Below are positions 16,384 to 51,186 of a stretch of DNA of 64,000 nt, piece after piece; positions within the stretch are counted from its first letter, which is position 1, and the number at the start of each line of letters is the position of its first letter. The stretch covers positions 20-64,019 of the forward strand of contig JAURLI010000072.1 of NCBI GenBank assembly GCA_030831315.1, in the 5' to 3' direction. Position numbers and translations under genes: made by a program. The notes beneath the pieces were generated by a model, which was given only the letters and a program-made list of their open reading frames with translations, had not been told where the DNA came from and did not search any database. Source of the stretch: Alphaproteobacteria bacterium. GTDB lineage: Bacteria; Pseudomonadota; Alphaproteobacteria; SMXQ01.

Positions 16384-16392
16384 CGCGCGCCC

Positions 16393-18023: not shown

Positions 18024-18048
18024 TTACGAACACGGCGCGTCCCGATGC

Positions 18049-18657: not shown

Positions 18658-18659
18658 GA

Positions 18660-19494: not shown

Positions 19495-19578
19495 TTTGTC
19501 CGCCGCTTAAGCGCAAAATTTCGAAAAAAGGCAGGTATTTGGAGAGAGCTGCCGCCCCCGGCCGGCCCGCCTGCCCGC

Positions 19579-20676
19579 CTACTGGCTTCTTTTCTTCTTC
19601 TTTTTCTTCTTGGCGCAGTACTTGGCGTCGGTGAAGCGTTCGCACTGGGTGCCGCCGCGGGCAAGGGCCGCGTTCATCAGGTCGACAACCGATTTGGGCG
19701 CAGCCACCAGCTCCACCGCCATATCCTGCAATTCCTTGCCGGTCAACGGATCGATGTCGAGGCGGCTCTTCTTGGCCTCCGCCAGAAATTTCGGGTTCTT
19801 CATGGTGGTATCGAAAGCCGTCCTTAGCGCGGCCAGCCGGTCGGCGGGAACATCCCGGTTGGTCAGCAGCGGACGACCGACGGCGGCGACCTTCCCCATC
19901 AGGTCGAGCACCATGCGCTGGTCGGGAGTCTGGGCGAGATCAACGAAGCGCGGCACATCGGGCAGGTCGGGATGCTTCTTCAGGCTGTTCTGGATCAGGA
20001 TCACGATCTTCTTGTCGCGGATCCAATGCGGGTAATCGGCGCGGATCTCATCCCAGGTGGCGCTGCCGCGCACGGCGATTTCGCCGCGCTCGAGCGCTAG
20101 GTCGACTTCGTGGCCGCCCTTGTAGCCGATGATGATCTTGAGCTTGAGACCGAACAGGTGATTGGCAAGCGCGGGGTAAATGAAATTCGCGCCCGTGGCG
20201 CTCGTAGCGCCGACGATCATTTCGCGATCCTTCGCCTGCATCAGCGAAGTAAATCCCGCCGCGCGCCAGGCAACCATGACGCTGACGGGCTGGATCGGCG
20301 TGCCGATCCAGTTGAACTTGGCCGCATCGTACTTGATGCCCCGTTCGCCCAGAGCCTGCGACATGGCGAGCGTCTGGGAGAACGCGCCGATCACGGAACC
20401 GTCGCGGGGCCCGGCGTTGTAAAGCCAGTTGGCGGCGACGCGGCTCGATGCGCCGGGGCGGTTCTGGACGATGACATTCGGTTTGCCCGGAACGTACTGA
20501 CCGAAATGGCGCGCGACCAAGCGCGCGGTCGTATCGTAACTGCCGCCCGCCGAGGTGCCGACAACGATGGTAATTTCCTTCTTCTTGTAGAAATCCTCGA
20601 CCGATTGGGCCACGGCGGGCAGCGAAACAAGCGCGGCAAGAGCCGCAACTGCGGAAACAAGGACGGGTCGGTTCAT
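19579..20676 (-). CDS. TctC/Bug-family binding protein with C-terminal poly-lysine tail (...AKKKKKKKRSQ)
   Basis: 365 aa. Signal peptide MNRPVLVSAVAALAALVSLPAVAQS. Subfamily motif FYKKKEITIVVGTSAGGSYDTTARLVARHFGQYVPGKPNVIVQNRPGAS. The tail is encoded at 19582-19611. Confidence 0.85.
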   Translation of the reverse strand: MNRPVLVSAVAALAALVSLPAVAQSVEDFYKKKEITIVVGTSAGGSYDTTARLVARHFGQYVPGKPNVIVQNRPGASSRVAANWLYNAGPRDGSVIGAFSQTLAMSQALGERGIKYDAAKFNWIGTPIQPVSVMVAWRAAGFTSLMQAKDREMIVGATSATGANFIYPALANHLFGLKLKIIIGYKGGHEVDLALERGEIAVRGSATWDEIRADYPHWIRDKKIVILIQNSLKKHPDLPDVPRFVDLAQTPDQRMVLDLMGKVAAVGRPLLTNRDVPADRLAALRTAFDTTMKNPKFLAEAKKSRLDIDPLTGKELQDMAVELVAAPKSVVDLMNAALARGGTQCERFTDAKYCAKKKKKKKRSQ

Positions 20677-20720
20677 GGCAGTCTCCCTTTCTTGCTTCCG
20701 GGCCCGTATTCAGGTCCCGG

Positions 20721-22196: not shown

Positions 22197-22215
22197 CGGG
22201 TGCTCCACTGATTTT

Positions 22216-23268
22216 CTACTGGGACTTCTTCTTTTTCTTTCCGCCGCCAGTATTTTCCGTCGCCACCGCCGCCTTGAAGCGCGCAACCACGGCGGGGGAC
22301 GCAGCCGAAATACCTTCAACCATCTTCTGCAGCTTCGTGCCCTCGATCGGCTGGATTTCGAGCTTGGCGCGGCTCGCATCTGCAAGCAATTTCGGATCGC
22401 CAATCGCACTCATGAAGGCCTTGCGCAGGAGCGCGATCCGTTCCGTTGGCACGCCGGGCGGCGCCATCATGGCGCGGCCGATGGTTTCCGTCGTCGCCAG
22501 CAGCGAGATCACCTGCCGCTCTTCATCGTTGCGAGCATATTCGATCAGGGTCGGAACCTCCTTGAGCATCGGATCACGTTCCAGGGTCATCTGGAACAGA
22601 GGCACGATCTTTTTTTCCTTCACCCACTGCGGGTTCTGAAAAGTATAAGACATCCACGAATTACTGCCCCGCCCCGATACCTCGCCGCTTTCCATCGCCT
22701 TGTTCACTTCCGTGGCGCTGCCATAGCCGAGCACCACCTTGAACTTCGTTCCAAACAGGCGGTTCGCCATCAGCGGATACATTTCCTGGGTCGTACCCGG
22801 CGTCGTCGCCCCGACGGCAATCTGCTTCTTCGTGGCGTCGGTCAGCGTCTTGAAACCTGTGGAGTGCCAGACCACCAGCACATTGGTCGGACTGGCCGTC
22901 GTGCCGATCCAGTTGAATTTGCCGACGTCGTATTTGGCCTTGCCCGGATTAAGAAGCTGGAAAATCGGGATCGTATTGAGTGTGGCGCCAAGCTGTGTCC
23001 CATCCTTCGGCGCGACACTGTAAATGAACGCCGCGACACGGGTCCCCCCCGCGCCCGGCATGTTCTTCGGCACCATGGTGGGGTTTCCGGGAAGATGCTG
23101 GCCGAGATGTCGCGACATCAACCGCGCATAGGCGTCATAGCTGCCGCCGGCACCCGAACCGATGGAAATCGTGATGGTCTTTCCCGCGAAAAACTCGTCT
23201 GCCGAAACGGTCGCGGGCGCAAGCGCGCACGCACAGAGCACGGCAATGGCAGGAATACGATTCGTCAT
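22216..23268 (-). CDS. TctC/Bug-family binding protein with C-terminal poly-lysine tail (...GGGKKKKKSQ)
   Basis: ORF track 22216..23286 trimmed to the ATG at 23268 (AGGGAG upstream). Signal peptide MTNRIPAIAVLCACALAPATVSA. Motif FFAGKTITISIGSGAGGSYDAYARLMSRHLGQHLPGNP. Confidence 0.85.
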   Translation of the reverse strand: MTNRIPAIAVLCACALAPATVSADEFFAGKTITISIGSGAGGSYDAYARLMSRHLGQHLPGNPTMVPKNMPGAGGTRVAAFIYSVAPKDGTQLGATLNTIPIFQLLNPGKAKYDVGKFNWIGTTASPTNVLVVWHSTGFKTLTDATKKQIAVGATTPGTTQEMYPLMANRLFGTKFKVVLGYGSATEVNKAMESGEVSGRGSNSWMSYTFQNPQWVKEKKIVPLFQMTLERDPMLKEVPTLIEYARNDEERQVISLLATTETIGRAMMAPPGVPTERIALLRKAFMSAIGDPKLLADASRAKLEIQPIEGTKLQKMVEGISAASPAVVARFKAAVATENTGGGKKKKKSQ

Positions 23269-33985: not shown

Positions 33986-35455
33986 TCAGTCCCGCAGGAA
34001 CTTGAGCTTGTCGCGCCACTTGGCGCGGACTTCCTCGGCATAGCCCTTGCTCACCGCATTGACCTTTGGGAAGTCGTCCTTCCAGTGCCAGGGCCGGACG
34101 GCGTAGACGATCATGCGCGAATTGGTGATGTCGTCTTTTTCGCGCTTTTCAGGCGACAGCGCCGGGTCGATATGCCCAGTCCAGCAGCCGTCGATGATGT
34201 CGGTCTGGGTCTTGGGGTCCCAGCGCGTCGCCATCGCCCACATCACCTCGGCGGGCTTGGTGATGTCGATATCGTCGTCGACGACCACGATCATGCGCGC
34301 CATGTAGGCACCCGGCCGGCATCCCGCCAGCACAAGGCCCGCCATCTTGGCGTGGCCCGCGTGCATCTGCTTGATCGAGACCACCGGAATGAAGCGCGAG
34401 CCGCCGCCCTGCAACAGCCACACGCCGGTCACCCCCGGCACGCCCGCGCCTTCCAGCGCGTCCCACAACCCGGCAAGGCGCGGAATTTTGATCTGGCGGC
34501 CCGGATAGTTGGGCTTCACCGGCGGCTGACCGAGGATGATCGGATCGTTGCGATGATAGACGGCCTTAACGTGGACCACCGGCTCCGGCCGGTCGGCGGA
34601 TGCGTAATAGCCCGGCCATTCGCCGAACGGCCCCTCGGTCGCCGATTCCTTGTCGAGCGGCGGCATGAAGCCCTCGAAAACCAGTTCCGCGTCCGCCGGG
34701 AAAGGCAGGCCCGTATGCTTGCCGCGCACGGTCTTGACCGCCTGTCCGACGCGCCCGCCGGCAATCGCCAACTCGCTCTCGCCGTCCTTGGCCGAAAGCG
34801 AGGCGACGACGCCCAGAACCGGCGCCTGTCCGACGACGACGGCGATCGGGCAGGCCTCGCCCTTGTCCCAGTATTTCTTGCGGATCACGTCGCCGTGCTT
34901 GCCGGGTTCTATGAACACGGACAGGCGCTTGTCGTCCTGGATCATCACGCGATAGGTGCCGATGTTCACCCAGTCGCTGTCGGGATCCTTGGTCACGATC
35001 AGGCATTCTGTGCCGATGTAATTGCCGCCGTCGCCTTCGTGCCAACGCGGCGCCGGGTAGTTCGACAGGTTGACCGCGGCACCCTCGACGATGTTGTCCA
35101 TGACCGGGCCGCTGTTGACGTCCTGGGGCGGGATCGGCTCGCTTTTCTGCTTGGGCCGCGCGCGATAGGCGCGCACCGCATCGAGGCTGATATCGCCGAC
35201 CAGGAAGCGCGATGTGCGCACGTTCGAAAGGATGCGAAAGCGCGGATCGAAGCCGGGAATATCCTCGAACAGCAGCACCGGCGGATAGGTATGCTCGTTC
35301 GAAAGTTCGAACAGCGCGCCGATTTCAAGGTCGGCCTTTGCCCCTTTGACGCGCACCAGCTCGCCCTCGGCCTCGGCCTCGCGCAGGAAGACGCGCAGGT
35401 CGGCCATCGCCTCCTGCCGCCGTTCGCGCACATCGTCTTTTTTGCTTTCCGCCAT
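33986..35455 (-). CDS. UbiD-family decarboxylase, paralog B (short class, 489 aa)
   Basis: Motifs WVNIGTYRVMI, TEGPFGEWPGYYAS, QMHAGHAKMAGL and WDPKTQTDIIDGCWTGHIDP. Embedded between bicupin genes. Confidence 0.9.
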   Translation of the reverse strand: MAESKKDDVRERRQEAMADLRVFLREAEAEGELVRVKGAKADLEIGALFELSNEHTYPPVLLFEDIPGFDPRFRILSNVRTSRFLVGDISLDAVRAYRARPKQKSEPIPPQDVNSGPVMDNIVEGAAVNLSNYPAPRWHEGDGGNYIGTECLIVTKDPDSDWVNIGTYRVMIQDDKRLSVFIEPGKHGDVIRKKYWDKGEACPIAVVVGQAPVLGVVASLSAKDGESELAIAGGRVGQAVKTVRGKHTGLPFPADAELVFEGFMPPLDKESATEGPFGEWPGYYASADRPEPVVHVKAVYHRNDPIILGQPPVKPNYPGRQIKIPRLAGLWDALEGAGVPGVTGVWLLQGGGSRFIPVVSIKQMHAGHAKMAGLVLAGCRPGAYMARMIVVVDDDIDITKPAEVMWAMATRWDPKTQTDIIDGCWTGHIDPALSPEKREKDDITNSRMIVYAVRPWHWKDDFPKVNAVSKGYAEEVRAKWRDKLKFLRD

Positions 35456-35484: not shown

Positions 35485-36585
35485 TCACGCCGGGGCCATG
35501 ACCTCGAAACCGTTCTTCGCGCATTCCTCGACATAGGTATTCCAGATCCACGAACGCAGGTCGGGATCGAGGTCCTTGTAGTGAATCAGCTTGCCGCCTT
35601 CCGACACATGCTTGTGCGACTTGTCGAACAGATGGTTGATCGGCAGCTTGCGCGAGCGCAGCTTGATGGCGAGCTGCACGCTGACCGGGTCCGTGCCGAA
35701 ATGCCCATGCCACCACATGTTGGGCGGCACGATCACGCCGATGTCGTCCTCGGGCCAATCGAAGCGCTCCATGGCGCCGTTCTCCTGCCACATCAGCGAA
35801 TAGCCCTTGCCCGACAGGTTGAACACGAAGGCCGAAGGCCCGTGCCGGTGCGGGTTGAAGAAACGAAGCCCCGGATGCTCGGCGATGTGCACGGAAATGA
35901 CGCTGTTCGCCATCTCGAAATAGGCGGTGTTGTTGCCAACGCCCTTTTCGCGGAAGGACGACCGCTGCACGCCGAGCACATCGGGCACGAAGGTCGTCTC
36001 ATAAAGGTTGACCGCGGTCTTGTTGTGATTGGGGTCCGGTTCGAACAGCACGGCTTCGGACGGGTCGATATCGGCTTCGATGCGGTTGAAGTCGTAATCG
36101 AGGCCGAAGACGAACTTGCGGTCGCGGTAGAGGTTGTAAACGATGGGTATGGTGTTGACGCTGACGAAGCGCGCCGGCTCGCTGCCCGACCCGTTGTGCA
36201 GCTGGTAGCGGCAATTCATGGGGATGGCGAACAGCGAACGCGGGCCCCATTCGAAAGACACCTTGCCCTTCGCGGTTTCGACCGTCGCATTGCCGTGACC
36301 CGCCATGATGTAGATGCATTCGTCGGCAAGCTGGCGCCACGGCGCGCTCGATTTGCCCGGTGCCAGTTCGCCCACGAACATACCGGCAAGGGATTCGGCG
36401 CCGATCAGGTCGACGAAGGCAGCACCGATGCCGCGCTCGGCCCAGGGCGCCACGGGAAAACTTTTCAGCGGGCCGAAGGCATAGCCGCGATGCAGCGCAA
36501 GGCCTAGGTCGTCCTCCACCCATTTTTCGTAGGCCGTGCGCCCATCCCAGGGAACGCCCGTATGCTTTTCGCGAACCGTGACCAT
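35485..36585 (-). CDS. Bicupin protein, divergent paralog 4
   Basis: ORF track 35485..36600 trimmed to the ATG at 36585 (GGGAGGA 3 nt upstream). Motifs FEWGPRSLFAIPMNCRYQLHNGSG, LYETTFVPDV, FFNPHRHGPSAFVFNLSGKGYSLMW and WWHGHFGT. Confidence 0.85.
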   Translation of the reverse strand: MVTVREKHTGVPWDGRTAYEKWVEDDLGLALHRGYAFGPLKSFPVAPWAERGIGAAFVDLIGAESLAGMFVGELAPGKSSAPWRQLADECIYIMAGHGNATVETAKGKVSFEWGPRSLFAIPMNCRYQLHNGSGSEPARFVSVNTIPIVYNLYRDRKFVFGLDYDFNRIEADIDPSEAVLFEPDPNHNKTAVNLYETTFVPDVLGVQRSSFREKGVGNNTAYFEMANSVISVHIAEHPGLRFFNPHRHGPSAFVFNLSGKGYSLMWQENGAMERFDWPEDDIGVIVPPNMWWHGHFGTDPVSVQLAIKLRSRKLPINHLFDKSHKHVSEGGKLIHYKDLDPDLRSWIWNTYVEECAKNGFEVMAPA

Positions 36586-36858
36586 TAATCCTCCCGACAC
36601 TTACTCGCGCTGCGGCGGAGAAAAAGGACGGGAACGGATGCGATGGAAAACCGCTGCGCTGCGCGCCTTGCGGTCCCGGACCTCCCTGTCTTTTTTTTCG
36701 CGTCGTTGCGCTCTTTTGTTTATTTTACACCGGCAGCCCCGTCGCGCCAGTGCCCATCTCGTCCGTTTCTCCTGGTTTTCAACGCTTCGCGGCCTTTTCC
36801 CGATTGACCGGAAAAATTCCGATTATCAGAATGACGTAAAAGCACCAATCGAGAGACA
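36586..36858. promoter_or_regulatory. Divergent promoter region (bicupin/UbiD operon versus IclR gene)
   Basis: 273-nt spacer with a T-run (cttttttttcg), ttttgtttattttaca and ggaaaaattccgattatcagaatgacgtaaaa patches. No specific site can be defined. Confidence 0.35.
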
Positions 36859-37719
36859 ATGCCAAAACCGCCAGCGAAAACTGCCCGCCACGCCGCCGCC
36901 ACGCCGAGATCGCCGAAGAACGCCAACCGTTCGGTCGGCATCGGCCTGGCCGTGCTTCAGGCCATCGCCGGACTCGGCCGCGCCGGCACGTTGTCTGAAA
37001 TCGCGCGGGCCGCGCGCATGCCGGCAAGCCGCACGCACCGCTTCCTTGCCGGCATGATCCAGGTCGGCGCGGTGCGCCAGGATCCTGTTTCGGGCCGCTA
37101 CGACCTTGGGCCGCTGATGGTCGATCTCGGCGTGGCGGCGCTCGGCCGCGTCGACGGGGTCAAGTCGGGCAGCGAGGCCCTCGCCCGCCTGACCGAACGC
37201 ACGGGCCTTGTGTCCGTGCTCGTCATCTGGTCCACCAACGGACCTACCGTAATCCGCTGGGAACAGGGCGAACTGGCAACCGCCATCCGCATCCGCGAAG
37301 GGCGCAACCTGTCGCTGTTGCGCACGGCATCGGGAAAGATTTTTCTCGCTCACCTCGGGTCCGAAAAAACCGGGGAGCTGGTCGATACCGAATTGGCGAG
37401 TGCCGCGCACAGGGCGAGCACTTCGCCGCTGCGCACGCTCGATGACGTCGAAAAGGAAAAACTGCGCGTGCGTTCCGAAGGCATTGCCGACAATCCAGGC
37501 GAGTCGGATCTCGGCATAGCCGCCCTCGCGGCTCCCGTATTCGGCGCCGCCGGCACGCTGGCGATGGTCATCGCGCTGATCGGGGTGCATGGCGTCGCCC
37601 AGCTCGACCGCCACGGGCCTTCTGCTACGGCACTCAGGGAAGCTGCCGACGAGGTGACGCTCAGCCTGGGAGGGCGCCCTGCCACGGCGCCACGGCTGCC
37701 CGTGCGCCCGGCAACCTGA
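36859..37719 (+). CDS. IclR-family transcriptional regulator
   Basis: 286 aa. SVGIGLAVLQAIAGLGRAGTLSEIARAARMPASRTHRFLAGMIQVGAVRQDPVSGRYDLGP plus an effector domain. Confidence 0.9.
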   Translation: MPKPPAKTARHAAATPRSPKNANRSVGIGLAVLQAIAGLGRAGTLSEIARAARMPASRTHRFLAGMIQVGAVRQDPVSGRYDLGPLMVDLGVAALGRVDGVKSGSEALARLTERTGLVSVLVIWSTNGPTVIRWEQGELATAIRIREGRNLSLLRTASGKIFLAHLGSEKTGELVDTELASAAHRASTSPLRTLDDVEKEKLRVRSEGIADNPGESDLGIAALAAPVFGAAGTLAMVIALIGVHGVAQLDRHGPSATALREAADEVTLSLGGRPATAPRLPVRPAT

Positions 37720-37720: not shown

Positions 37721-39310
37721 CTAGTCGATCCGCTTGCGCACGTTGCGCAGCTTGGCGCCGGTCTCGAAATGGCGTCCCTCAACAGCGAGCTGCGCCTCTT
37801 CTTCCAGTTCCTTCGTCCACGCGCCGAGCTGGTAGCCGTACCAGGGCGAGCGCAGATCGAGGGCGGGCAGTTGCAGCTCGCGCCAGATGTCGAGCGCGCG
37901 TTCCATGTATTCCCTGCGCGGCAACGAGATCGGCGGGTAATCCCAAGGCATCGTCGCGTCGATCAGCAGGCCCGTGGATACCGGCGCCTCCGCCGTGGCG
38001 ATGCCGCGCGAGGTACCCGGCGGCGCCACCGAAGGATCGAGGGCCAGAAGCGGGGTCTCGATCGACTTGACGTCGACATGCGGGCGCACCCGCCATGCGA
38101 CCGCCCACAGGATATGCTCCAGCGAGGTGATGTCGATATCCTCGTCCACGGCGATCGCGAACTTGCCGATGTATTTCGACGCGAGATGCTCGAGCGCCTT
38201 CATACCCTCGTCGGCGCTGTGCTTCTTCAGCTTGACGACGACGAGGGAATTGGCGCCGCCGCATTCGAGATAGTCGAGATCGCTCACGGTCGTGAAACCG
38301 GCATCGATCAGAAACTTCTTGGCCGCCGCCGACCGGCCGAGGTGACGCATCATCGAGGATTCGGACGGCGGCAGTTGCGACAGGATGGCGAGGTAGATGG
38401 GCTTCCTGCGCATGGTGATGCAGGTCACGTCCATGAAGAAGCTGTAGTCGCGCTGGGCCATGTAGCCGGGGAACTCGCCGAAGGGGCCTTCCATCTCGAC
38501 CTCGCTGGTCGGCACGGTACCTTCGATGACGATTTCCGCCTCGGCCGGAACCAGCAGGTCCTGCGTGCGACATTTGACCAGATCGAGCGGCTTGCCCGCG
38601 ATGGAGCCGGCGACGTCGTATTCGCACATGTCGTTGGGAATGCGGGTAACGGCGGTATAGCTGACGTGCGGCGGCGCCCCCAGCACGATGGCGGCCGGCA
38701 TGCGCTCGACCCCCGCCGCGCGCCACAGGTCGATGTGGTTGCGCATGCCGACGCCGAGCATGGCGGGCAACGTGCCGATGCGGTCCGGCGCCTTGACCAT
38801 GCCGCGGTAGTTGCCGAGGTTGTGCAGGCCCGTTTCCGGGTCCTTGCTGACCCAGTGCGAGGCCGAGGTATAGGGGGCGTTGTCGAACCCGGGCGTCGAA
38901 ATCGGCACCGGCAGAAGGTCGAGGCCTCCGGTCTTGAGCCGCTCGCCCTCGATCACGACCTCCTGGCAGGAACCGGTCGCCACCACGTTCGATGGCGTCG
39001 GGTTCTTCATCGCCTGCGCCCACCGGTCCGGGATCTCGTCCACCGCGCAGCCCATGCCGAGTGCATAGATTTCGGAAGATCCCGCCATCGCGCCGACCAG
39101 CACGGGCATGTCGTACTTGCGCCCCCTCGCGTCGTGGACGTTTTCGAACAGGAAGGCCTTGCGCTTGGCTTCCGGCAGGCCGCGGAACTGCAGCCGCACG
39201 AGCGGATGCAGTTCGGTGTCCTTGTTGATCGGCACCGTGACGCGCACGAGCTTGTCGGCGGCTTCCAGCGCCGCGACATATTCGGCGAGATTGCGATAGG
39301 ACCGCGCCAT
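37721..39310 (-). CDS. UbiD-family decarboxylase, paralog C (long class, 529 aa)
   Basis: ORF track 37721..39640 trimmed to MARSYRNLAEYVAALEAADKLVRVTVPINKDTELHPLV... (AAGGGAAAGGA upstream). Motifs HNLGNYRGMV and MEGPFGEFPGYMAQ. C-terminal extension WDYPPISLPRREYMERALDIWRELQLP. Confidence 0.9.
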   Translation of the reverse strand: MARSYRNLAEYVAALEAADKLVRVTVPINKDTELHPLVRLQFRGLPEAKRKAFLFENVHDARGRKYDMPVLVGAMAGSSEIYALGMGCAVDEIPDRWAQAMKNPTPSNVVATGSCQEVVIEGERLKTGGLDLLPVPISTPGFDNAPYTSASHWVSKDPETGLHNLGNYRGMVKAPDRIGTLPAMLGVGMRNHIDLWRAAGVERMPAAIVLGAPPHVSYTAVTRIPNDMCEYDVAGSIAGKPLDLVKCRTQDLLVPAEAEIVIEGTVPTSEVEMEGPFGEFPGYMAQRDYSFFMDVTCITMRRKPIYLAILSQLPPSESSMMRHLGRSAAAKKFLIDAGFTTVSDLDYLECGGANSLVVVKLKKHSADEGMKALEHLASKYIGKFAIAVDEDIDITSLEHILWAVAWRVRPHVDVKSIETPLLALDPSVAPPGTSRGIATAEAPVSTGLLIDATMPWDYPPISLPRREYMERALDIWRELQLPALDLRSPWYGYQLGAWTKELEEEAQLAVEGRHFETGAKLRNVRKRID

Positions 39311-39330
39311 GCCGGTATCCTTTCCCTTGC

Positions 39331-40104
39331 TTATTTCTTGCTGACGCGCACGCCCGCCTTCGCTTTCTCGTAGCAGGCATCGAGCATCTGGCAATAGAGA
39401 TCGACCGGCGTCAAAGCGCAGTATTCGAACGGATAGCCCGGTCGCTCCGTCACCCCCTTCGTCAGGATGCGGCGCAGCACGTGCTTGGTGACGGAGGAAT
39501 GCGCCTCGCGTCCCAGGTGGTCCTGCGTGTCGGCCTCGTGATGTTTGTGGAAGTAATCGGCCTGCTTTGGCGTCAGCTTGTAGTGCTTGGTCAGCGCCTT
39601 GTACCAGCGCATGCAGGACCAGCCGAAAGCCCCTTCCCACAGGACGGATGCCCAGTATTCATGCATGGCGCCATCGTTGACCAGGGTGCGATGGAAGTCG
39701 GTCAGCGCACGCGCCTCGGGCATCATCGGGCGGGTGAGAATCTGGTCCGCCGTGAGACTCAGGGCCTTGCCCGAGGAAATCAGGATCTTGATGTGGCCCG
39801 GGGGCTCCGGATGGCCGAATTCGTCGAGCACCTTGTGGGTATAGGTCTCCATCAGGTCGACGTTGGAGACGAAGAAGGACAGATGCTTGTAGAACTGCAC
39901 CATATAGAGCGAGTTGATTACCGGCACGAAGGCGCCCCAGTTGGAATAGAACAGCTGGATCGTGCTCAGCGGCAGCTTGCCCTTTTCCAGATCCGTCATG
40001 AACCGGGTCTTCTCGACGGTCTTGTTCCAGCGGGCTTCGACCCGCTTCTGGAGGTCTTCCAGATACGGACCGACCTCCTTATTGGATATCTTCAGCGTTG
40101 TCAT
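39331..40104 (-). CDS. TenA/PqqC-like heme-oxygenase-fold protein (divergent third paralog)
   Basis: 257 aa, all-helical-looking sequence. Motifs VLDEFGHPEPPGHIKIL, VLWEGAFGW and FHKHHEADTQDHLG. Sandwiched between two UbiD genes with 20-nt and 52-nt spacers. Confidence 0.75.
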   Translation of the reverse strand: MTTLKISNKEVGPYLEDLQKRVEARWNKTVEKTRFMTDLEKGKLPLSTIQLFYSNWGAFVPVINSLYMVQFYKHLSFFVSNVDLMETYTHKVLDEFGHPEPPGHIKILISSGKALSLTADQILTRPMMPEARALTDFHRTLVNDGAMHEYWASVLWEGAFGWSCMRWYKALTKHYKLTPKQADYFHKHHEADTQDHLGREAHSSVTKHVLRRILTKGVTERPGYPFEYCALTPVDLYCQMLDACYEKAKAGVRVSKK

Positions 40105-40156
40105 GACGTTACCTGCCCTTTCTGCGCCAAGGCGCCATCGTTCGAATTTTTTTCAT

Positions 40157-41620
40157 TCAGTCGTCAAGAAACTTGAGCCGGTCGCGCCAGCGGGCGCGAA
40201 CTTCCTCGGCATACTCGCGGCTGACCGCATTGACCTTCGGGAACTGGTCCTTCCAGTGCCACGGACGCACGGCGTAGATGATGATGCGCGAATTGGTCGT
40301 GTCCCCCGCCGCCCGCTTTTCCGGCGGCAGCACGGGATCGAGATAGCCCGACCAGCAGCCGTCGATGATGTCGGTCTGTGTCTTCGGGTCCCAGCGCGTC
40401 GCCATCGCCCAGACGACCTCGGCCATGCTGGTGATGTCGATGTCGTCGTCGACCACGATGGTCATGCGGCCGAGGAATGCCGCAGGCGCCGCGCCGGTGG
40501 CGACGAGGCCCGCCATCTTGGCGTGGCCCGCGTGCATCTGGCGGATGGCAACGACGTTTATGAAACGGGTACCGCCCGCCGAAAGTTTCCAGACACCGGT
40601 GACACCGGGCACGCCCGCGCCTTCGAGGGCGTCCCAGATCGCCGCCGCGCCCGCGATATGGGTCTGGCGCCCGGGCAGCGTCGGACGCACCGGCGGCTGG
40701 CCGATCAGGATGGGATCGTTGCGGTGATAGACCGCTGTGACCCGCGTCGCCGGCTCGTCCCGCCGGCCCGACGCGTAATAGCCCGGCCATTCGCCGAAGG
40801 GACCTTCCGGGCGAGTTTCGACATCGGGCGATACCATCAGGCCTTCGACGGCGATTTCCGCATCGGCGGGAATCGGCAGCCCAGTTTTCGACCCCTTGAT
40901 GACCTCGATGGCACGGCCGATCTGGCCGCCCGCGATGGCAAGCTCGGAAATGCACTGCCCGTAGCCCACCCGCGCCACGCTGCCCAGTACCGGCGCCTGG
41001 CCGAAGCAGACGACAACGGGGCAGGCCTCGCCGCGCTCCCAGTACTTGCGGCGGATGACGTCGCCGTGCTTGCCCGGTTCGGTGAACACGGTCAGCGTGC
41101 GACGATCATGCACCTGGGTGCGGTAGGTGCCGACGTTGATCCAGTCGCTGTCGGGGTCCTTCATGATGACGACGCATTCGGTGCCGAGATAGACGCCGCC
41201 GTCGTCTTCGTGCCAGACGGGCTGGGGAAAGCGTGTCATGTCCACATGATCGCCTTCCATCACGTTTTCCATCACCGGGCCGCTTGCCACCTCGCGCGGG
41301 GGGATCGGCTCGGCCTTGCGCTTGTCCCTGCAGGCGCGATAGGCGCGCACGGCGTCGAGGTTCAGCTCGCCCACCATCAACGGCGAAGTACGCACGTTCA
41401 TGATCACCCGGCAGCCGGGCGCGCAACCCTTCATGTCCTTGAACAGCAGGACCGGCGGGTAGAGTTGTTCGAGGCTGAGCTCGTAAAGGGCGCCCATCTC
41501 GCGGTCCGGATCGGCGCCTGCGACGACCTGCACCTCGCCGCGGCTTTCGGAAATGCGCAGGAATTCGCGCAACGACGCGATCGCCGCGGTCTTTTTGTCG
41601 TTGACGCGCGCATCGCTCAC
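40157..41620 (-). CDS. UbiD-family decarboxylase, paralog D (short class; start uncertain)
   Basis: ORF track 40157..41734. Alignment with paralogs B and F suggests the GTG at 41620 (VSDARVNDKKTAAIASLREFL...), but no clear SD precedes it; the ATG at 41734 remains possible. Motifs WINVGTYRTQV and PEGPFGEWPGYYAS. Confidence 0.85.
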   Translation of the reverse strand: MSDARVNDKKTAAIASLREFLRISESRGEVQVVAGADPDREMGALYELSLEQLYPPVLLFKDMKGCAPGCRVIMNVRTSPLMVGELNLDAVRAYRACRDKRKAEPIPPREVASGPVMENVMEGDHVDMTRFPQPVWHEDDGGVYLGTECVVIMKDPDSDWINVGTYRTQVHDRRTLTVFTEPGKHGDVIRRKYWERGEACPVVVCFGQAPVLGSVARVGYGQCISELAIAGGQIGRAIEVIKGSKTGLPIPADAEIAVEGLMVSPDVETRPEGPFGEWPGYYASGRRDEPATRVTAVYHRNDPILIGQPPVRPTLPGRQTHIAGAAAIWDALEGAGVPGVTGVWKLSAGGTRFINVVAIRQMHAGHAKMAGLVATGAAPAAFLGRMTIVVDDDIDITSMAEVVWAMATRWDPKTQTDIIDGCWSGYLDPVLPPEKRAAGDTTNSRIIIYAVRPWHWKDQFPKVNAVSREYAEEVRARWRDRLKFLDD

Positions 41621-41734
41621 GACGGCTGCCGGACGCAAATCCAGCCTCTTGAACCCGGTAAAATCCCCGCCTGCACGCCGGCATCTCCCTGTGCGGTCAA
41701 AATGGCGGATTTCTGCTGTTTTTCTGGCCGCCAT

Positions 41735-41851
41735 CGGGACCCCGAGGGGCCCGATTCAGGGATAGACAAGGGTAGTCCTTCATGCAAGTCTAAAAATCGA
41801 AATGCGTTCTGTTTTTGTGAATATCAGAAAAATAACCGGGGATTCGCAGGG
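41735..41851. promoter_or_regulatory. Divergent promoter region (UbiD-D operon versus Rieske operon), AT-rich
   Basis: Contains gcaagtctaaaaatcgaaatgcgttctgtttttgtgaatatcagaaaaataacc, the most AT-rich stretch for several kb. Confidence 0.35.
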
Positions 41852-42163
41852 ATGAGCAGGGATTACGTCGTCGGCCGGATCGAGGACATTCCCGACAAGG
41901 GTTCGGTGGCGGTTCGCGCCGGCAGGCAGACGATCGCCGTGTTCCGGGACGGTGAAAGTTTCTACGCCATCCACGACAATTGCCCGCACAAGGGCGGACA
42001 CATGTGCCAGGGCGAATTCGAGCCGCAGAACGCCCTTGTCCGCTGCCCGATCCACCTTTGGGGCTGGAGCCTCAGGACCGGCGAACTCGAGACCGATACG
42101 CGCCAGATGATCCGCACCTACCCCGTGAAGGTGGTGGACGGTCAGGTCGTCCTCAGCGCATGA
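41852..42163 (+). CDS. Small Rieske [2Fe-2S] domain protein (NirD/ferredoxin-like, 103 aa)
   Basis: Hidden in the spurious 39962..42163 track ORF. MSRDYVVGRIEDIPDKGSVAV...HDNCPHKGGHMCQGEFEPQNALVRCPIHLWGW carries the CxH...CxxH cluster ligands. Confidence 0.8.
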   Translation: MSRDYVVGRIEDIPDKGSVAVRAGRQTIAVFRDGESFYAIHDNCPHKGGHMCQGEFEPQNALVRCPIHLWGWSLRTGELETDTRQMIRTYPVKVVDGQVVLSA

Positions 42164-42191
42164 TTTAGCGGATATCTGCAGGAGACCAGAG

Positions 42192-43349
42192 ATGACCAAG
42201 GTCAAGACCGAGGGCGCTCCCGAACGGGCGGAAATCGTCAAGCCCGAGCGTGTCGATCCGCGCGTCCATGATTATGAAATCATCGATACCGACATTCACC
42301 TGCTGCCCGACTGGGACCGGCTGCGCGACTACATGCCCGAACCCTATCGCACCAAGCTCAAGACCTTCCCGCTCGTGGGCTCGGACTACAACCCGTCCTA
42401 CGCGACCAACAAGCCGGGCACCGGGCAGGAAGTTTTCGGCCGCGCCAAGACCGGCGCCGATGTGCTGGATTCGATGAAGGATACGGGCGCCAATTCGGTC
42501 ATCATCGTGCCCGGATTCCTCAGGCCCCAGAGCATGTATCACAAGTCCTGGGTTTCCGTTCTGGCCTCGGCCTACAACGACTACGTGATCGAGAACGTCT
42601 TTCCGGCCAGCCCCGACATCAAGGCGGAGCTGATGATCAACCAGCGCATCCCCGAAGATGCGGCACGGGAAATCCGCCGGGTCGGCCATCACAAGCAGTT
42701 CGTCAGCGCCTATACCGAATTCGGCGGCAACTACGAGCAGATCGGCACCGTCGATCACGACCCGATCTTCGAGGCCGCGCTCGAACACCAGCTGATCGTC
42801 ACCCTTCACGCAGGCACGTTCTGGCAGGCCTACACGCCCTTGCACCAGGGCGCGCGCACGTGGACGGAACTGCTCGGCGTTTCGACCATGGCAATCTGCC
42901 TGGCGGACGTCGCCAGCATGATCATCCAGGGCGTTTTCGACAAGTACCCGGACCTGCGCTGCACAATCAAGGAAGGCGGCTTCTGGTGGATACCGGAGAT
43001 GTCGCTGCGGCTCGACGATTATTACCTGAACCACCCGCACGACATCAGCCTGTGCGAACGCAAGATCGAGGCAGGCGAAGCCTTCCTGCGCCACCTGCCG
43101 AGCGATTACATCTGGGAACACTTCCGCTTCTCGACCCAGCCGATGCTGTTTCCGAAAAATCCGAAACACGCTCAGTGGCTCTGGGAAATGTGCCGGGCAG
43201 AGGACATGCTGCTGTTCTCCACCGACTGGCCCCACGCCACCTTTGATCCGCCCAACTGGATGTTCGATACAGGCTTCATCACCGAAAAGGCGCGGCGCAG
43301 GATATTCAGCGAAAATGCCCGCGCCTGGTACCCGCGGCTGGCAAAATAG
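42192..43349 (+). CDS. Amidohydrolase_2 (ACMSD/LigW/LigJ-type) metal-dependent decarboxylase/hydratase family protein
   Basis: 385 aa. N-terminal IIDTDIHLLP (DxH variant of the metal motif), internal TLHAG, and C-terminal LLFSTDWPH aspartate motif. Confidence 0.85.
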   Translation: MTKVKTEGAPERAEIVKPERVDPRVHDYEIIDTDIHLLPDWDRLRDYMPEPYRTKLKTFPLVGSDYNPSYATNKPGTGQEVFGRAKTGADVLDSMKDTGANSVIIVPGFLRPQSMYHKSWVSVLASAYNDYVIENVFPASPDIKAELMINQRIPEDAAREIRRVGHHKQFVSAYTEFGGNYEQIGTVDHDPIFEAALEHQLIVTLHAGTFWQAYTPLHQGARTWTELLGVSTMAICLADVASMIIQGVFDKYPDLRCTIKEGGFWWIPEMSLRLDDYYLNHPHDISLCERKIEAGEAFLRHLPSDYIWEHFRFSTQPMLFPKNPKHAQWLWEMCRAEDMLLFSTDWPHATFDPPNWMFDTGFITEKARRRIFSENARAWYPRLAK

Positions 43350-43393: not shown

Positions 43394-45013
43394 GTGGACG
43401 GCAAGCACGACGGGTCCGCGCAGTTGCAGGACCTGAGGGCGCATCTCGAGCGCCTGGAAAAGGAAGAACTTCTCACCCGCGTCACGCGGCCGATCAACAA
43501 GGATACGGAACTCATGCCGCTCGTGCGCTGGCAGTTCCGCGGCCTGCATGAGGATCAGCGGCGAGGCTTCCTGTTCGAAAACGTCACCGATGCGCGCGGA
43601 CGCAATTTCGAGGGATCCGTCGCGGTCGGCATATATGCCGCCTCGCGCAAGGTCTATTCCCTCGGCATGGGCTGCCCGGTCGACCAGATCCGCAAACGCT
43701 GGGCGGAAGCCCAGGCCCGGCCGCTCAAGCCGGTCGAGGTCGCCACCGGCCCGGTGCATGAGGAAGTGCACATGGGCAAGGACCTCCTCGCCCACAACGG
43801 CATCGAGGAATTCCCGATTCCCATTTCGACGCCCGGTTTTGACGTCGGCCCCTACACCACCGCGTCGAACTGGATCACGCGCGATCCCGATACGGGCTGG
43901 ATCAACGTCGGCAACTACCGCGGACAGGTCAAGGCGGCCGATCGATTCGGCATGTTCATCAGCCCGCGCAATCACGGCTTCAAGCACTGGGATTCGGCGC
44001 GTCAGAAGGGCAAGGCGCTGGAAGCGGCACTGGTCATTGGCGGCCCCGCCGCCGTCACCTATGCGTCTGGTTCACGCATTCCCTGGGGCGTCGAGGAATA
44101 CGCCGTCGCCGGCGGCCTGATCGGCGAGCCGCTCGAGGTCGTCAAGTGCAAGACCGTCGACCTGACCGTTCCGGCCCATGCCGAGTTGGTGATCGAGGGA
44201 CGCATCAGCCACGAATACCTGGAGCCGGAAGCGCCGTTCGGCGAATACACCGGCTACATGGGCGGGCGCCTCTATAACGCGGTGATGGAAGTCACCGCTA
44301 TCACCCACCGCAAGAATCCCGTCTTTGCCGCGATCATCAGCCAGATGCCGCCGAGCGAATCGAGCATGCTGAAGAAAATCGGCCAGGATGCGGCCTATCT
44401 CCATTACCTGCGCAACACCTGCAACCTGCCCGATGTCCTCGAAGTCAACTGCCACGAGATCGCCGTCGATTCCTGGGTCGTCGTGCGCATGCGCCGCTGC
44501 AACCAGGCCGCCGTATGGCAGGCGCTCTACGCCGTCGCCGGACGCAACGCGATGGTCGGCAAGTACATCATCGCGGTGGACGAGGACATCGATGCGAGCG
44601 ACCTCGACGCCGTCATCTGGGCGCTGAGCTACCGCACCCAGCCCCATGCCGACAGCCTGATCCTGCCCAACCGCTCCGTCGGGCTCGATCCGTCGGGCCT
44701 GCCGCCGGGCGAGGACATCAGCGATTCGACCGTGCAGCAGCATTTCGGCTCGGCCATCCTGATCAACGCGATGCGCAAATGGGATTACCCGCCGGTCTCA
44801 CTGCCGCGCAAGGAATACATGGAAAACGCGCGGCGCATCTGGGAGGAACTCCAGCTGCCCCGCCTGACCCCGCGCAACCCGTGGCACGGCTACGAGCTGG
44901 GCGACTGGTCGGAACGCGACCGCGAGGAGGCCGACTGGGCCGTGAAAGGCGAGTACATCAGGACCGGCGAACGCGCGCTGAAAGAGCGCAAGCCGGTCGA
45001 AGGCGAAGAATAA
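43394..45013 (+). CDS. UbiD-family decarboxylase, paralog E (long class, 539 aa)
   Basis: GTG start after AGGGAG. Motifs RVTRPINKDTELMPLV, WINVGNYRGQV and PEAPFGEYTGYMGG. C-terminal WDYPPVSLPRKEYMENARRIWEELQLP shared with paralog C. Confidence 0.9.
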   Translation: MDGKHDGSAQLQDLRAHLERLEKEELLTRVTRPINKDTELMPLVRWQFRGLHEDQRRGFLFENVTDARGRNFEGSVAVGIYAASRKVYSLGMGCPVDQIRKRWAEAQARPLKPVEVATGPVHEEVHMGKDLLAHNGIEEFPIPISTPGFDVGPYTTASNWITRDPDTGWINVGNYRGQVKAADRFGMFISPRNHGFKHWDSARQKGKALEAALVIGGPAAVTYASGSRIPWGVEEYAVAGGLIGEPLEVVKCKTVDLTVPAHAELVIEGRISHEYLEPEAPFGEYTGYMGGRLYNAVMEVTAITHRKNPVFAAIISQMPPSESSMLKKIGQDAAYLHYLRNTCNLPDVLEVNCHEIAVDSWVVVRMRRCNQAAVWQALYAVAGRNAMVGKYIIAVDEDIDASDLDAVIWALSYRTQPHADSLILPNRSVGLDPSGLPPGEDISDSTVQQHFGSAILINAMRKWDYPPVSLPRKEYMENARRIWEELQLPRLTPRNPWHGYELGDWSERDREEADWAVKGEYIRTGERALKERKPVEGEE

Positions 45014-45065: not shown

Positions 45066-46175
45066 ATGACGGGATACAAGACAGGACAGGTGCGCCTTGG
45101 CTGTTACGCCGGGGCGTTGACCGCGGCGATCGCGCTTGCGGCCCCCGCGGGTGCGCAAGGCTTCGACGCGAAGGCCGAAGCCGCCTTCTTCAAGGGCAAA
45201 ACGGTCACCGTCGTCGTCGGCTTCGGCACCGGCGGTGGCTACGACACCTATGCCCGGCTGCTTGCCCGACACTACGGTCGCCATCTGCTGGGCGCACCCA
45301 ACGTCATTGTCCAGAACATGCCGGGCGCGTCCGGTATCAAGTCGGGCAATTACATTTACGAGGTCGCCCCGCGCGACGGGACGGCCATTTCGCTGTTCAA
45401 CAAGTCGATGCCGACCTACGAGGCGCTTGAACGGCCGGGCGTCCGTTTCAAGTCGAAAGAGCTCAACTGGATCGGGTCGATCGAAGCCGCCAATGCCACG
45501 ATGATCGTGATGGCATCTTCGGGCATCAAGACGATGGCCGATGCGGGCAAGCGCGAGGTCATCCTGGGCGCGGTCAGCGCATCCGGGTCGATGGGTTTCT
45601 ACCCGGCCATGACCAACCGCCTGCTCGGCACGAAATTCAAAATCATCTCGGGCTATCCCGGATCAAAGGCGATCACGCTGGCGATGGAACGCGGCGAGGT
45701 CGAAGGCGTCGGCAGCCCGCCGTGGACGTCCTGGCTCGCCACCACGCCCGAATGGGTGCGCGACAAGAAGATCAACGTGCTGGCGCAGCTCGGCCTCAAG
45801 AAGGATCCGACGATCCCGGGGCCGCTGCTGACCGAACTCGCGGCGGACGAGAAATCCCGCAAGATCATCGAGTTCGTCTCCGCCGACATCGCCATCGGGC
45901 GTCCTGTGGCCGCGCCGCCCAAGGTGCCCGCCGGGCGCGTTCAGGCCATGCGCCGGTCCTTCGATGCCGCGCTTAAGGACCAGAAGCTTCTCGCCGATGC
46001 GATGCGCCTCAAGCTCGATATCGGTCCCGACACGGGCGAAACCGTCGAAAAGCTGGTGCACGCCATGATCGACACGCCGAAAGACATCATCGCCGAGGCC
46101 AAGGACGCGATCGAGCCCAAGGGCCTCGTCAAACGAGAGATCAAGAGCAAGAAGAAAAAGAAGAAAGCCGAATAG
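45066..46175 (+). CDS. TctC/Bug-family binding protein with C-terminal poly-lysine tail (...KSKKKKKKAE)
   Basis: 369 aa, AGGAGGG upstream, signal peptide, motif FFKGKTVTVVVGFGTGGGYDTYARLLARHYGRHLLGAPNVIVQNMPGASG. The K-run is at 46149-46166. Confidence 0.85.
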   Translation: MTGYKTGQVRLGCYAGALTAAIALAAPAGAQGFDAKAEAAFFKGKTVTVVVGFGTGGGYDTYARLLARHYGRHLLGAPNVIVQNMPGASGIKSGNYIYEVAPRDGTAISLFNKSMPTYEALERPGVRFKSKELNWIGSIEAANATMIVMASSGIKTMADAGKREVILGAVSASGSMGFYPAMTNRLLGTKFKIISGYPGSKAITLAMERGEVEGVGSPPWTSWLATTPEWVRDKKINVLAQLGLKKDPTIPGPLLTELAADEKSRKIIEFVSADIAIGRPVAAPPKVPAGRVQAMRRSFDAALKDQKLLADAMRLKLDIGPDTGETVEKLVHAMIDTPKDIIAEAKDAIEPKGLVKREIKSKKKKKKAE

Positions 46176-46227: not shown

Positions 46228-47214
46228 TTGGCGGACCATATCCATTTCCCCTATCGTTCTTCGAGCCACCTGCCATTCCTGCACGTGGTTTACGAATCGG
46301 GTTCGTGGAAGAAGCACGGGCTCGAGGTCGATTACAATTACAAGATCAGTTCCAAGGACGCGCACATGGAAGTGCCGTCGGAACATGTCGAATTCGTCGG
46401 CGGCAATCATGTCTCGACCTACGCCCAGCGCGCCCACGAAGACACTTGGGTATACCTGGGCCAGAGCGTGAATACGCTGAATACGCGTCTTGTCGTGAAG
46501 CTGGACTCCGAAATCTGCGGCGTGCCGGACCTGATGGGCAAGAAGATCGGTACCCGCGGCATGCACCCGGGGCTCAACGACTGGATCTACTGCAAGCAGC
46601 GGGGACTGGATGTGGACCGCGGCGACATTGAATTCGTCAGCCAGATCAGCGCCCCCATGGGCAGCATGGACCCCGGCTTCAAGGATGAGGACGTCGAGCG
46701 TCTGCCGCTCTGGCACTGGGTGCGCGACGGCAAGGTCGATGCCGCCTTCGTCACGGCGCCGGGCTGCCTTCACGCGCAGAAGGCGGGACTCAAGGTCATC
46801 GACATCGATCCGCTGCCGATGATCTGGTTCACGACGATCTCCTCGTCCTCCACCTTCATCAAGAAGCATCCCGATATCGTGGAGCGATTCCTCAAGGGGC
46901 TGATCGAGGGCATCCACTACTTCAAGACCCACGAGGCGGAAGCGACCGCCATGATCAAGAAGCACTATACGGATGAAGGCCAACTGACAGACGACGAGGC
47001 GACCTTCCTTTATCACGACGTCGCCCGAATTCTGGAACCGAAGCTCTATCCGTCGATGACGTCGATCTCGAACGTCTATCAGGAGGCGATCCGCCAGAAC
47101 AAGGATGCGCGCCAGGTCAATCCCATGGAACTTTGGGACATGCACCACATCCGCCAGATCGACGACAGCGGGTTCATTCGTGATCTCTACAAGAACATGC
47201 CCGTGACGAAATGA
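46228..47214 (+). CDS. NMT1/THI5-like (SsuA/TauA-fold) protein without signal peptide
   Basis: 328 aa, TTG start after AAGGGAGG. It begins directly MADHIHFPYRSSSHLPF with no hydrophobic leader. Paralog of the 1..980 gene. Confidence 0.8.
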   Translation: MADHIHFPYRSSSHLPFLHVVYESGSWKKHGLEVDYNYKISSKDAHMEVPSEHVEFVGGNHVSTYAQRAHEDTWVYLGQSVNTLNTRLVVKLDSEICGVPDLMGKKIGTRGMHPGLNDWIYCKQRGLDVDRGDIEFVSQISAPMGSMDPGFKDEDVERLPLWHWVRDGKVDAAFVTAPGCLHAQKAGLKVIDIDPLPMIWFTTISSSSTFIKKHPDIVERFLKGLIEGIHYFKTHEAEATAMIKKHYTDEGQLTDDEATFLYHDVARILEPKLYPSMTSISNVYQEAIRQNKDARQVNPMELWDMHHIRQIDDSGFIRDLYKNMPVTK

Positions 47215-50133: not shown

Positions 50134-51186
50134 ATGCGCCGGATGAAATTAAGCTCGATTGCCATTATCGCCGCTTTCTGCACGGCCCCAGCAATGGCCG
50201 CCGATTTTTACGCCGGAAAGCAAATCAAGATCGCCATCGGCCTTGGTGCAGGATCGACCTACGACGCCTATGCCCGAACGCTCGTGCGCCACATGGGCCG
50301 CCATATTCCCGGCAGGCCCGAATTCCTTAACGTCAACATGCCCGGTGCCGGCAGCCTGAAGGCCTATAACTACATCTACACGGTTGCCAAGAAGGACGGC
50401 ACCGAATTCGGCACCGGTCACCGCTTCGTCCCCATCATGCCGCTGTTCGGCATCAAGGGGACCCAGTTCGACGGCACCAAATTCGGCTACATCGGCTCGG
50501 CCAACCGGGAAGTCGGCGTCACCATTGCCTGGCACACGTCGCCGGTAAAGACCTTCGATGATCTGAAGAAGCACGAACTGATCATCGGCACGACCGGTGC
50601 GGGCGCCCAGCTCACCAACTTTACCAGCGTGCTCAAGACCGCGCTCGGCGCCAAGCTGAAAGTCGTCTACGGCTACAAGACCACGCGCGAGATCGACCTT
50701 GCCGTCGAGCGTGGCGAAATTCAGGGTCGCGCTGGCGTGTCCTACAATTCGATCAAGAACGCGACGCCGGAATGGCTGAGCCAGAAGAAGATCAGCATCC
50801 TGAACCAGATGGGGCTCAGCAAGCATCCCGAATTGCCGAACGTGCCGAATATCCTCGATCTCGTGACCGCCAAGCTTGACCGCGAGGCGATCGAGCTTCT
50901 GCTGGCACCCTCCGAAATGGGCCGCCCCTTCGTGACGCCCCCGGGCATTCCGGCCGACCGTCTTGCCGCGCTTCGGAGCGCCTTCGACCAGACGATGAAG
51001 GACAAGGCTTTCCTTGCGGACGCTGAAAAGCAGAAAATGGAAATCAACCCGATGACGGGGGCAGAGGTGGAGACCTTGATCAAGCGCATATATGCCACCG
51101 CATCGCCCGAAGTCGTCGCCCGCGCCAAGGCGCTCACGGCCGACGGCATCAACACCTCGAAGAAGAAAAACAAGAAAAGCCAGTAA
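50134..51186 (+). CDS. TctC/Bug-family binding protein with C-terminal lysine-rich tail (...SKKKNKKSQ)
   Basis: 350 aa, AGGAGA upstream. Signal peptide MRRMKLSSIAIIAAFCTAPAMA, motif FYAGKQIKIAIGLGAGSTYDAYARTLVRHMGRHIPGRP. The tail is at 51160-51183. Confidence 0.85.
   Translation: MRRMKLSSIAIIAAFCTAPAMAADFYAGKQIKIAIGLGAGSTYDAYARTLVRHMGRHIPGRPEFLNVNMPGAGSLKAYNYIYTVAKKDGTEFGTGHRFVPIMPLFGIKGTQFDGTKFGYIGSANREVGVTIAWHTSPVKTFDDLKKHELIIGTTGAGAQLTNFTSVLKTALGAKLKVVYGYKTTREIDLAVERGEIQGRAGVSYNSIKNATPEWLSQKKISILNQMGLSKHPELPNVPNILDLVTAKLDREAIELLLAPSEMGRPFVTPPGIPADRLAALRSAFDQTMKDKAFLADAEKQKMEINPMTGAEVETLIKRIYATASPEVVARAKALTADGINTSKKKNKKSQ

Follow-up and report, generated by a model that had tools for sequence, protein, structure and literature searches.

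A gene for a heme-oxygenase-fold protein, here called HO3, lies between two genes for predicted prenylated flavin mononucleotide (prFMN)-dependent decarboxylases of the UbiD family, UbiD_A and UbiD_B, in a 64,000-nucleotide (nt) stretch of the alphaproteobacterial contig JAURLI010000072.1 (the window), and genes of the HO3 clade are found close to UbiD genes in most of the loci collected from other genomes. This conserved HO3-UbiD link is a well-founded lead rather than a mechanism. The interpretation to which about an even chance is given holds that the trio encodes three separate enzymes of one pathway, in which HO3 would oxidize a ring substrate before ring cleavage by a bicupin dioxygenase. 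The genes of the trio all lie on the minus strand, in the order UbiD_A, HO3, UbiD_B, and are listed here with the region upstream of them:

40157..41620, minus strand: UbiD_A, predicted short-class prFMN decarboxylase of 487 amino acids (aa), GTG start
39331..40104, minus strand: HO3, heme-oxygenase-fold, CADD-like putative dimetal oxidase/oxygenase of 257 aa
37721..39310, minus strand: UbiD_B, predicted long-class prFMN decarboxylase of 529 aa, about 45 of which form a C-terminal tail
41621..41851, no strand assigned: probable promoter/operator region, AT-rich, between the divergent UbiD_A and Rieske genes, from sequence inspection

The coordinates and open reading frames (ORFs) of this UbiD-HO3-UbiD arrangement, including spacers of 52 nt and 20 nt, are confirmed as they stood in a preliminary description of the window, and both gene junctions are bridged by independent contigs from two other metagenome runs. 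Runs in which the stretch occurs bear the label of an estuary or marine metagenome. The reading frame of UbiD_A is open further, to an ATG at 41734, and that of UbiD_B is open to 39640, overlapping HO3; the shorter starts are preferred for both because UbiD_A orthologs measure 486-493 aa and UbiD_B orthologs begin with MARSYRNL. A purine-rich stretch precedes the ATG in each spacer, and a scan of the minus strand between 36500 and 42300 found no terminator-like site. A sigma-70 scan gave nothing above shuffled expectation and returned no consensus match in the probable promoter region, 41621..41851. A metatranscriptomic library holds 151-nt contigs that fall inside UbiD_A and UbiD_B with 0-2 differences, DNA carry-over being possible; as none of these contigs spans a junction, they do not demonstrate a single transcript, and the parts that they leave uncovered are uninformative. 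A tight co-directional unit is supported for the trio.

The association was surveyed in 59 loci gathered by HO3 similarity, their sources being labelled Alphaproteobacteria and Binatia or 'Deltaproteobacteria' metagenome-assembled genomes (MAGs). A UbiD gene adjoins HO3 (at most 400 nt away, on the same strand) in 33 of these loci; with the limit set at 3 kb on that strand the number rises to 50, and 54 loci contain a UbiD gene at any position. Among the nine loci without a same-strand UbiD gene within 3 kb, five end at or near HO3 (L013, L014, L016, L024 and L058), and of the 45 loci whose sequence reaches 1.5 kb or more in each direction from HO3, 41 have a UbiD gene within 3 kb. The chance of a nearby UbiD gene is estimated at about 10% or less, even in the UbiD-densest of the genomes examined (52 copies in 3.5 Mb; 125 in 8.3 Mb). 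Further recurrent neighbours are a bicupin of the gentisate-1,2-dioxygenase (GDO) type, adjoining HO3 directly after it in 19 of the 59 loci, a cytosolic NMT1/THI5-like gene within 3 kb (30/59) and a second HO3-like paralog within 3 kb (12/59). The exact UbiD-HO3-UbiD sandwich occurs in six of the 59 loci and was found only within the window's family, in three of its genera. The statement in the preliminary description that HO3 is not paired with a cupin holds for this lineage only, and fails for the 19 loci with a bicupin directly after HO3.

The linked UbiD is not the same in all lineages. According to a quick tree, it belongs in Alphaproteobacteria to the UbiD_A clade and lies upstream of HO3 (directly upstream in 9 of 11 tree rows of this clade), and in the Binatia-type MAGs to a different clade of the short class, with 33 rows, and lies downstream of HO3. 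Because both the side and the UbiD clade differ between lineages, the HO3-UbiD association has outlived rearrangement. The usual order in Binatia is HO3, an optional bicupin, UbiD, the NMT1-like gene, an HO3 paralog and an optional second UbiD, sometimes followed by TctC and TctA.

A reverse survey was anchored on UbiD_A, which was searched in 60 relatives, 30 of them genomes of the window's family and 30 representing other families of the class. Strong short-class matches were found in 29 of the 30 own-family genomes and in none of the 30 others. The best match reaches at least 69% identity in 15 other genomes and ends at a contig edge in one of them, leaving 14 that are assessable. HO3 stands directly downstream of the UbiD_A ortholog in ten of the 14, and UbiD_B comes next after it in seven of these ten, which gives the full sandwich in three genera. 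In the other four, the NMT1-like gene takes HO3's place after the UbiD_A ortholog; three of these genomes have HO3 elsewhere, and the query used detected no HO3 in the fourth (G028, 95% complete). This set overlaps the 59 HO3-anchored loci and is not an independent sample. The co-occurrence of HO3-type and UbiD genes, a check that had been suggested when the trio was first described, is thus strongly positive from both sides (50/59 HO3 loci; 10/14 UbiD_A orthologs).

Both UbiD proteins score far above the Pfam cut-offs of 23-24 bits: UbiD_A matches UbiD at E 2e-53 (181 bits) and UbiD_C at E 2.6e-22 (80 bits), and UbiD_B matches UbiD at E 1e-53 (182 bits), UbiD_C (57 bits) and also UbiD_N. With 29% identity between them they represent two different classes, as had been proposed. 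The short class comprises UbiD_A, UbiD_C, UbiD_E and UbiD_F in the window, with 61-64% mutual identity; the long class comprises UbiD_B and UbiD_D, which have in common a conserved C-terminal extension, charged and about 45 aa long, without counterpart in the short class. The closest solved relative of UbiD_A is PhdA (7pda; E 5e-107, near full length), presented in the available text of its report as a homohexameric phenazine-1-carboxylate decarboxylase with an active-site Glu (PMC10850782). For UbiD_B, the closest solved relative is 6h6x at E 8e-44. The entry title of 6h6x is generic, and we take 6h6x/6h6v to be HmfF, a 2,5-furandicarboxylate decarboxylase.

The motifs N-x-G-x-Y-R and E-G/A-P-F-G-E (E-G-P-F-G-E in UbiD_A) and a conserved Glu (E226 in UbiD_A) do not vary among the six UbiDs of the window, nor do the same residues vary across 27 short-class sequences. 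They presumably match R173, E277 and E282 of Fdc1, which serve prFMN/metal binding and catalysis. Because all catalytic motifs are kept, neither protein has the appearance of a dead or degenerate subunit, and the best reading of the sequences is that UbiD_A and UbiD_B would each be a complete prFMN-dependent decarboxylase. Neither reaches any equivalog in NCBIfam. The absence of a UbiX gene near the trio, remarked on earlier, is borne out: none is present in the window, and the genome's only two PF02441 matches lie on contigs C13 and C4, a 200-aa Flavoprotein-family frame at C13:13504-14016 supplying the genome's UbiX from outside the window. PF02441 and PF01613 (PhdB/PhdC-type) have no match on the window's contig, the HO3 loci elsewhere not having been scanned for UbiX, PhdC or LpdD, and the genome's two Flavin_Reduct genes are both on contigs without UbiD.

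HO3 carries all of the motifs first pointed out in it (DEFGH..GH, WEGAFG and HHEADTQDH), and its description as the more divergent of the window's three heme-oxygenase-fold (HO-fold) paralogs is upheld by BLASTP, which gives E 1-2 against the other two, these being 48% identical to each other. A profile of 27 HO3-clade members matches CADD/CT610 ('4-aminobenzoate synthase') among solved structures at E 7e-5, and its matches to PqqC chains are insignificant (E 0.06-0.33). The AlphaFold2 model of HO3 has a predicted local distance difference test score (pLDDT) of 93, and Foldseek places CADD first, with a target-normalised template modelling (TM) score of 0.84, followed by PqqC, FlcD, TenA, UndA and BesC, all with probability 1.0, which assigns HO3 to the seven-helix heme-oxygenase fold. 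In the HMMER alignment, HO3 residues E95, H104, E157, H188 and D192 fall on five of CADD's six ligand positions, and all five are conserved across the clade, the pattern typical of such dimetal enzymes being six carboxylate/histidine ligands on three helices; candidates for the sixth ligand are Asp195 at the aligned position, the adjoining His196 and the invariant His202 past a helix break. The position of the sacrificial Lys of CADD, which we take to be K152, with Y27 as the corresponding Tyr, is occupied by Trp in HO3. With five ligands kept and Trp at the Lys152 position, HO3 is a protein of the type of dimetal oxidases/oxygenases with a heme-oxygenase-like fold (HDOs) and no CADD orthologue, and from its sequence and model it is a putative dimetal protein. 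The clade is narrow, with 228 matches at E <=0.001 and 40 at E <=1e-30 among 1.84 billion cluster representatives, and an Atlas search with HO3 returned only unnamed clusters from HO3's own family.

Several proteins of 483-519 aa (P0099, P0101, P0107, P0121 and P0209) are matched twice by the HO3 profile and are tandem double-HO fusions, and pairs of HO3 and an HO3 paralog (43% identity) occur in Binatia operons. Because of these fusions and pairs, there are hints of a possible heterodimer within the HO3 family. A further candidate, the 379-aa P0063, was rejected as an HO3-UbiD_N fusion: it is a frameshifted HO3 read-through into a UbiD_B orthologue on a 287-kb contig. A role in PQQ breakdown or salvage, an idea prompted by the JGI label 'PqqC' on HO3 relatives, by the PqqT-like fold of a partner protein and by the tricarboxylate transporters, is now remote, given the CADD-type ligands and the insignificant PqqC matches; the JGI label is a fold-level name.

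The genes around the trio on which its interpretation draws are the following:

33986..35455, minus strand: UbiD_C, short class, bicupins on both sides (Pfam, alignment of window UbiDs)
35485..36600, minus strand: bicupin (cupinX), opening the next unit on the minus strand (weak Cupin_2 match; paralog map)
36859..37719, plus strand: IclR-family regulator, convergent with the UbiD_B end (HTH_IclR, IclR_C; position kept in L003, L004, L006, L008 and L057)
41852..42163, plus strand: stand-alone Rieske [2Fe-2S] ferredoxin-like protein of 103 aa (Rieske E 1e-15)
42192..43349, plus strand: Amidohydro_2 protein (PF04909 E 5e-22)
43394..45013, plus strand: UbiD_D, second long-class UbiD (Pfam, alignment of window UbiDs)
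46228..47214, plus strand: cytosolic NMT1/THI5-like protein of periplasmic-binding-protein fold (PF09084)

The window belongs to a genome of 2.70 Mb (99% complete, 89 contigs), in which it is contig C56, and contains six UbiDs, three HO-fold genes, two bicupin families, two IclR regulators, many TctC-like receptors and TctA/TctB. Judged by this predicted gene content, it is an aromatic-acid catabolic island. One of the two bicupin families is gentisate-1,2-dioxygenase-like, with 3bu7 matched at E 7e-58. At 15040-22409 (minus strand), UbiD_F and a TctC-like gene lie directly upstream of pcaHG (protocatechuate 3,4-dioxygenase alpha/beta), pcaIJ (CoA-transferase) and a pcaB-like Lyase_1 gene, an arrangement which suggests that UbiD_F may make protocatechuate from a carboxylated precursor; because UbiD_F is in an operon with pca genes, the island would contain a case of a short-class UbiD that feeds ring cleavage. 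The genome as a whole has 13 UbiD genes, seven HO-fold genes (six PF14518 matches and one found by tblastn) and 26 bicupin places, and a bicupin is found no more than 1.3 kb from five of the seven HO-fold genes, a UbiD no more than 2.3 kb from three. Five other HO3-bearing genomes have 14, 24, 30, 52 and 125 UbiD matches and 4-17 PF14518 matches, whereas a PF14518 match is present in only two of 14 control genomes; the UbiD and PF14518 families are co-expanded in HO3-bearing genomes.

In the preferred interpretation, the trio would be one operon of a large aerobic island for the catabolism of aromatic or heteroaromatic (poly)carboxylic acids. UbiD_A and UbiD_B would take off different carboxyl groups or serve different intermediates, and HO3, as an O2-activating dimetal enzyme of the HDO type, would oxidize the ring substrate, most likely by hydroxylation. 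The product, with an ortho-hydroxy-carboxylate pattern, could then be cleaved by the neighbouring gentisate/salicylate-dioxygenase-type bicupins. Substrate uptake may proceed via the TctC/TctA systems, control would be exerted by the adjoining IclR regulator, and the divergent stand-alone Rieske ferredoxin is a possible source of electrons. Gene order, folds, motif conservation and conserved neighbourhoods are observed, whereas we infer the metal content and substrate of HO3, the sequence of reactions and the identity of the electron donor. The support for the interpretation is contextual. A sequence of decarboxylation, oxidation and decarboxylation, as put forward when the trio was first described, would be compatible with the gene context.

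Several observations weigh against this interpretation. Close kinship among many of the 59 loci makes the counts overstate the number of independent events, and all of the loci are HO3-anchored. HO3 itself scores 27.1 bits against PF14518, just under the gathering cut-off of 28.9, most members of its clade carrying a precomputed PF14518 match, and its sixth metal ligand is ambiguous between D195, H196 and H202. A Rieske gene beside HO3 was not found in the Binatia-type loci, so that a Rieske electron donor would not be general. In addition, adjacency fails to separate a pathway enzyme from a helper of UbiD. Finally, a 2026 mini-review treats HDOs as natural-product enzymes, the word 'aromatic' occurring 0 times and 'catabol' for heme only in its available text (PMC13108848), and a precedent for a catabolic arene-oxidizing HDO was accordingly not found in this coverage of natural-product HDOs.

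The first alternative to separate pathway enzymes with a ring-oxidizing HO3, which is considered unlikely, makes the bicupin dioxygenase the actual partner of HO3, either as the other half of an SznF-like split oxidase or because HO3 acts on the ring-cleavage product, its place between two UbiD genes being the outcome of operon shuffling. In agreement with this proposal, bicupins stand next to the window's other HO-fold genes, HO1 and HO2, and next to those of contigs C9 and C62, and 19 loci have a GDO-type bicupin directly after the HO3 ortholog. In SznF, HDO and cupin domains are fused, according to the portion of the review at hand (PMC13108848). The closest bicupin to HO3 in this genome is nevertheless 2.7 kb away, past a regulator gene, and 40 loci have no adjoining bicupin, most of them still with a UbiD within 3 kb. 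The cupin of SznF is, moreover, a single barrel that acts on an amino-acid derivative, which also counts against a bicupin partner.

A second proposal, which must be called improbable, is that HO3 is a helper of PhdA-like UbiDs, either as a dimetal, O2-dependent prFMN maturase (turning prFMNH2, or the radical, into the iminium form) or as an activator, and thus a non-homologous analogue of PhdC. The kinship of UbiD_A with PhdA and the very strong linkage of HO3 with UbiD genes speak for it, and helpers of this general kind are on record: in the accessible sections of the respective papers, PhdA has its own maturase, PhdC, of HpaC-like fold (PMC13040415), and LpdD is a chaperone for other UbiDs (PMC10865409). 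Furthermore, no Flavoprotein (UbiX) or Flavin_Reduct (PhdC-type) domain was detected among the Pfam-scanned ORFs of the window, and the location of the genome's Flavin_Reduct genes away from any UbiD points the same way. The wider HO-fold family, however, associates at least equally with bicupins, often without a nearby UbiD, and four of the 14 UbiD_A orthologs lack HO3 within 1.5 kb downstream, G028 being the genome in which this query found none. The genome also has 13 UbiDs and only one HO3-clade gene, and HO3 is accompanied by catabolic partners (bicupin, TctA/TctC). An extended version, rated as quite improbable, has HO3-type proteins replace PhdC/LpdD for PhdA-like UbiDs throughout UbiD-expanded lineages, with the NMT1/THI5-like protein as an extra cofactor or substrate carrier; if true, UbiD activation would gain a third solution, unrelated to the others, and the HDOs a first role in cofactor maturation.

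The third alternative, that a single heteromeric (de)carboxylase is built from UbiD_A and UbiD_B, HO3 being included or not, much as the alpha/beta subunits build phenylphosphate carboxylase, is very unlikely, and the obligatory heteromer that the preliminary description had entertained is not upheld: tight spacing, co-directional genes, retention of the sandwich in seven other genomes of three genera of the family and a phenylphosphate carboxylase beta model as the top NCBIfam match of UbiD_A are set against scores well below the cut-offs (beta, 215 vs 469 bits; alpha, 142 vs 565; TIGR02723/TIGR02724, with UbiD_B scoring lower still), intact catalytic motifs in both proteins, UbiD_A-HO3 pairs without UbiD_B in five loci (L009, L011, L071, L073 and L074), UbiD_B orthologs apart from UbiD_A (L014 and L015) and the homohexameric state of PhdA.

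Some of the genes beyond the trio can be described further. The Rieske protein matches the NirD and HcaC-type ferredoxin models of NCBIfam under their cut-offs, its gene is conserved in divergent position beside UbiD_A in L003-L006, L057 and L063-L067, and among the window ORFs scanned no Pfam match to a Rieske-oxygenase large subunit was obtained. The Amidohydro_2 family includes non-oxidative aromatic decarboxylases, and the Rieske and Amidohydro_2 genes together (41852-43349) keep their divergent position from UbiD_A in close relatives. The NMT1/THI5-like protein is a steady neighbour of HO3 and short-class UbiDs in other genomes (loci L009-L061), and a signal peptide is absent in all 30 sequences examined. 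Its fold resembles those of Thi5, ThiY, SsuA, DszB and PqqT, which are generic relatives of the binding-protein fold, and it has no sequence match among solved structures. Two TctC-like receptors on the plus strand (45066-46175 and 50134-51186) end in lysine runs (KSKKKKKKAE and SKKKNKKSQ).

UbiD enzymes are sought as catalysts of reversible (de)carboxylation, and many of them resist activation in foreign hosts; HDOs, a young enzyme family, have until now been linked to natural-product biosynthesis. The conserved HDO-UbiD link, seen in uncultured Alphaproteobacteria and in Binatia-type MAGs with 13-125 UbiD genes, may lead either to the first catabolic arene-oxidizing HDO or to a new UbiD activation factor. 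A module of HDO, short-class UbiD, gentisate-type bicupin, cytosolic THI5-like protein and tripartite tricarboxylate transporter (TTT) may underlie the turnover of aromatic polycarboxylates in estuary, soil and groundwater. A literature search, with subscription journals and supplementary files outside its coverage, found no link of HDO/PF14518 proteins with UbiD, and no paper was found on a module of UbiD, gentisate and tripartite tricarboxylate components.

Among known systems, the closest to HO3 is CADD/CT610, the self-sacrificing dimetal p-aminobenzoate synthase of Chlamydia (1rcw, 8va9), with which it has the fold and five ligand positions in common. HO3 differs from it in its low identity (about 14%), in the Trp at the sacrificial Lys, in the displacement of the third His of the last helix and in a catabolic rather than folate context. 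UbiD_A resembles PhdA, which operates with PhdB (UbiX) and the maturase PhdC, in class, length and catalytic Glu motif, whereas no phdB or phdC homolog adjoins UbiD_A and four short-class paralogs are present in the window. The 6h6x enzyme is the nearest solved kin of UbiD_B, its match being far weaker than that between UbiD_A and PhdA, and UbiD_B has the tail of about 45 aa. Phenylphosphate carboxylase is a heteromeric UbiD-like enzyme with alpha and beta subunits and, like the trio, has two different UbiD-like genes side by side; the two UbiDs of the trio miss its equivalog cut-offs by more than 250 bits, and the spacers of the trio leave no room for extra genes. SznF, in the part of the review that was available (PMC13108848), brings together an HDO and a cupin, a parallel to the HO-fold/bicupin gene pairs of this genome. 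SznF differs in being one polypeptide of a natural-product pathway with an arginine derivative as its substrate; the genome described here has separate proteins, bicupins of the gentisate-dioxygenase type, and UbiDs as well.

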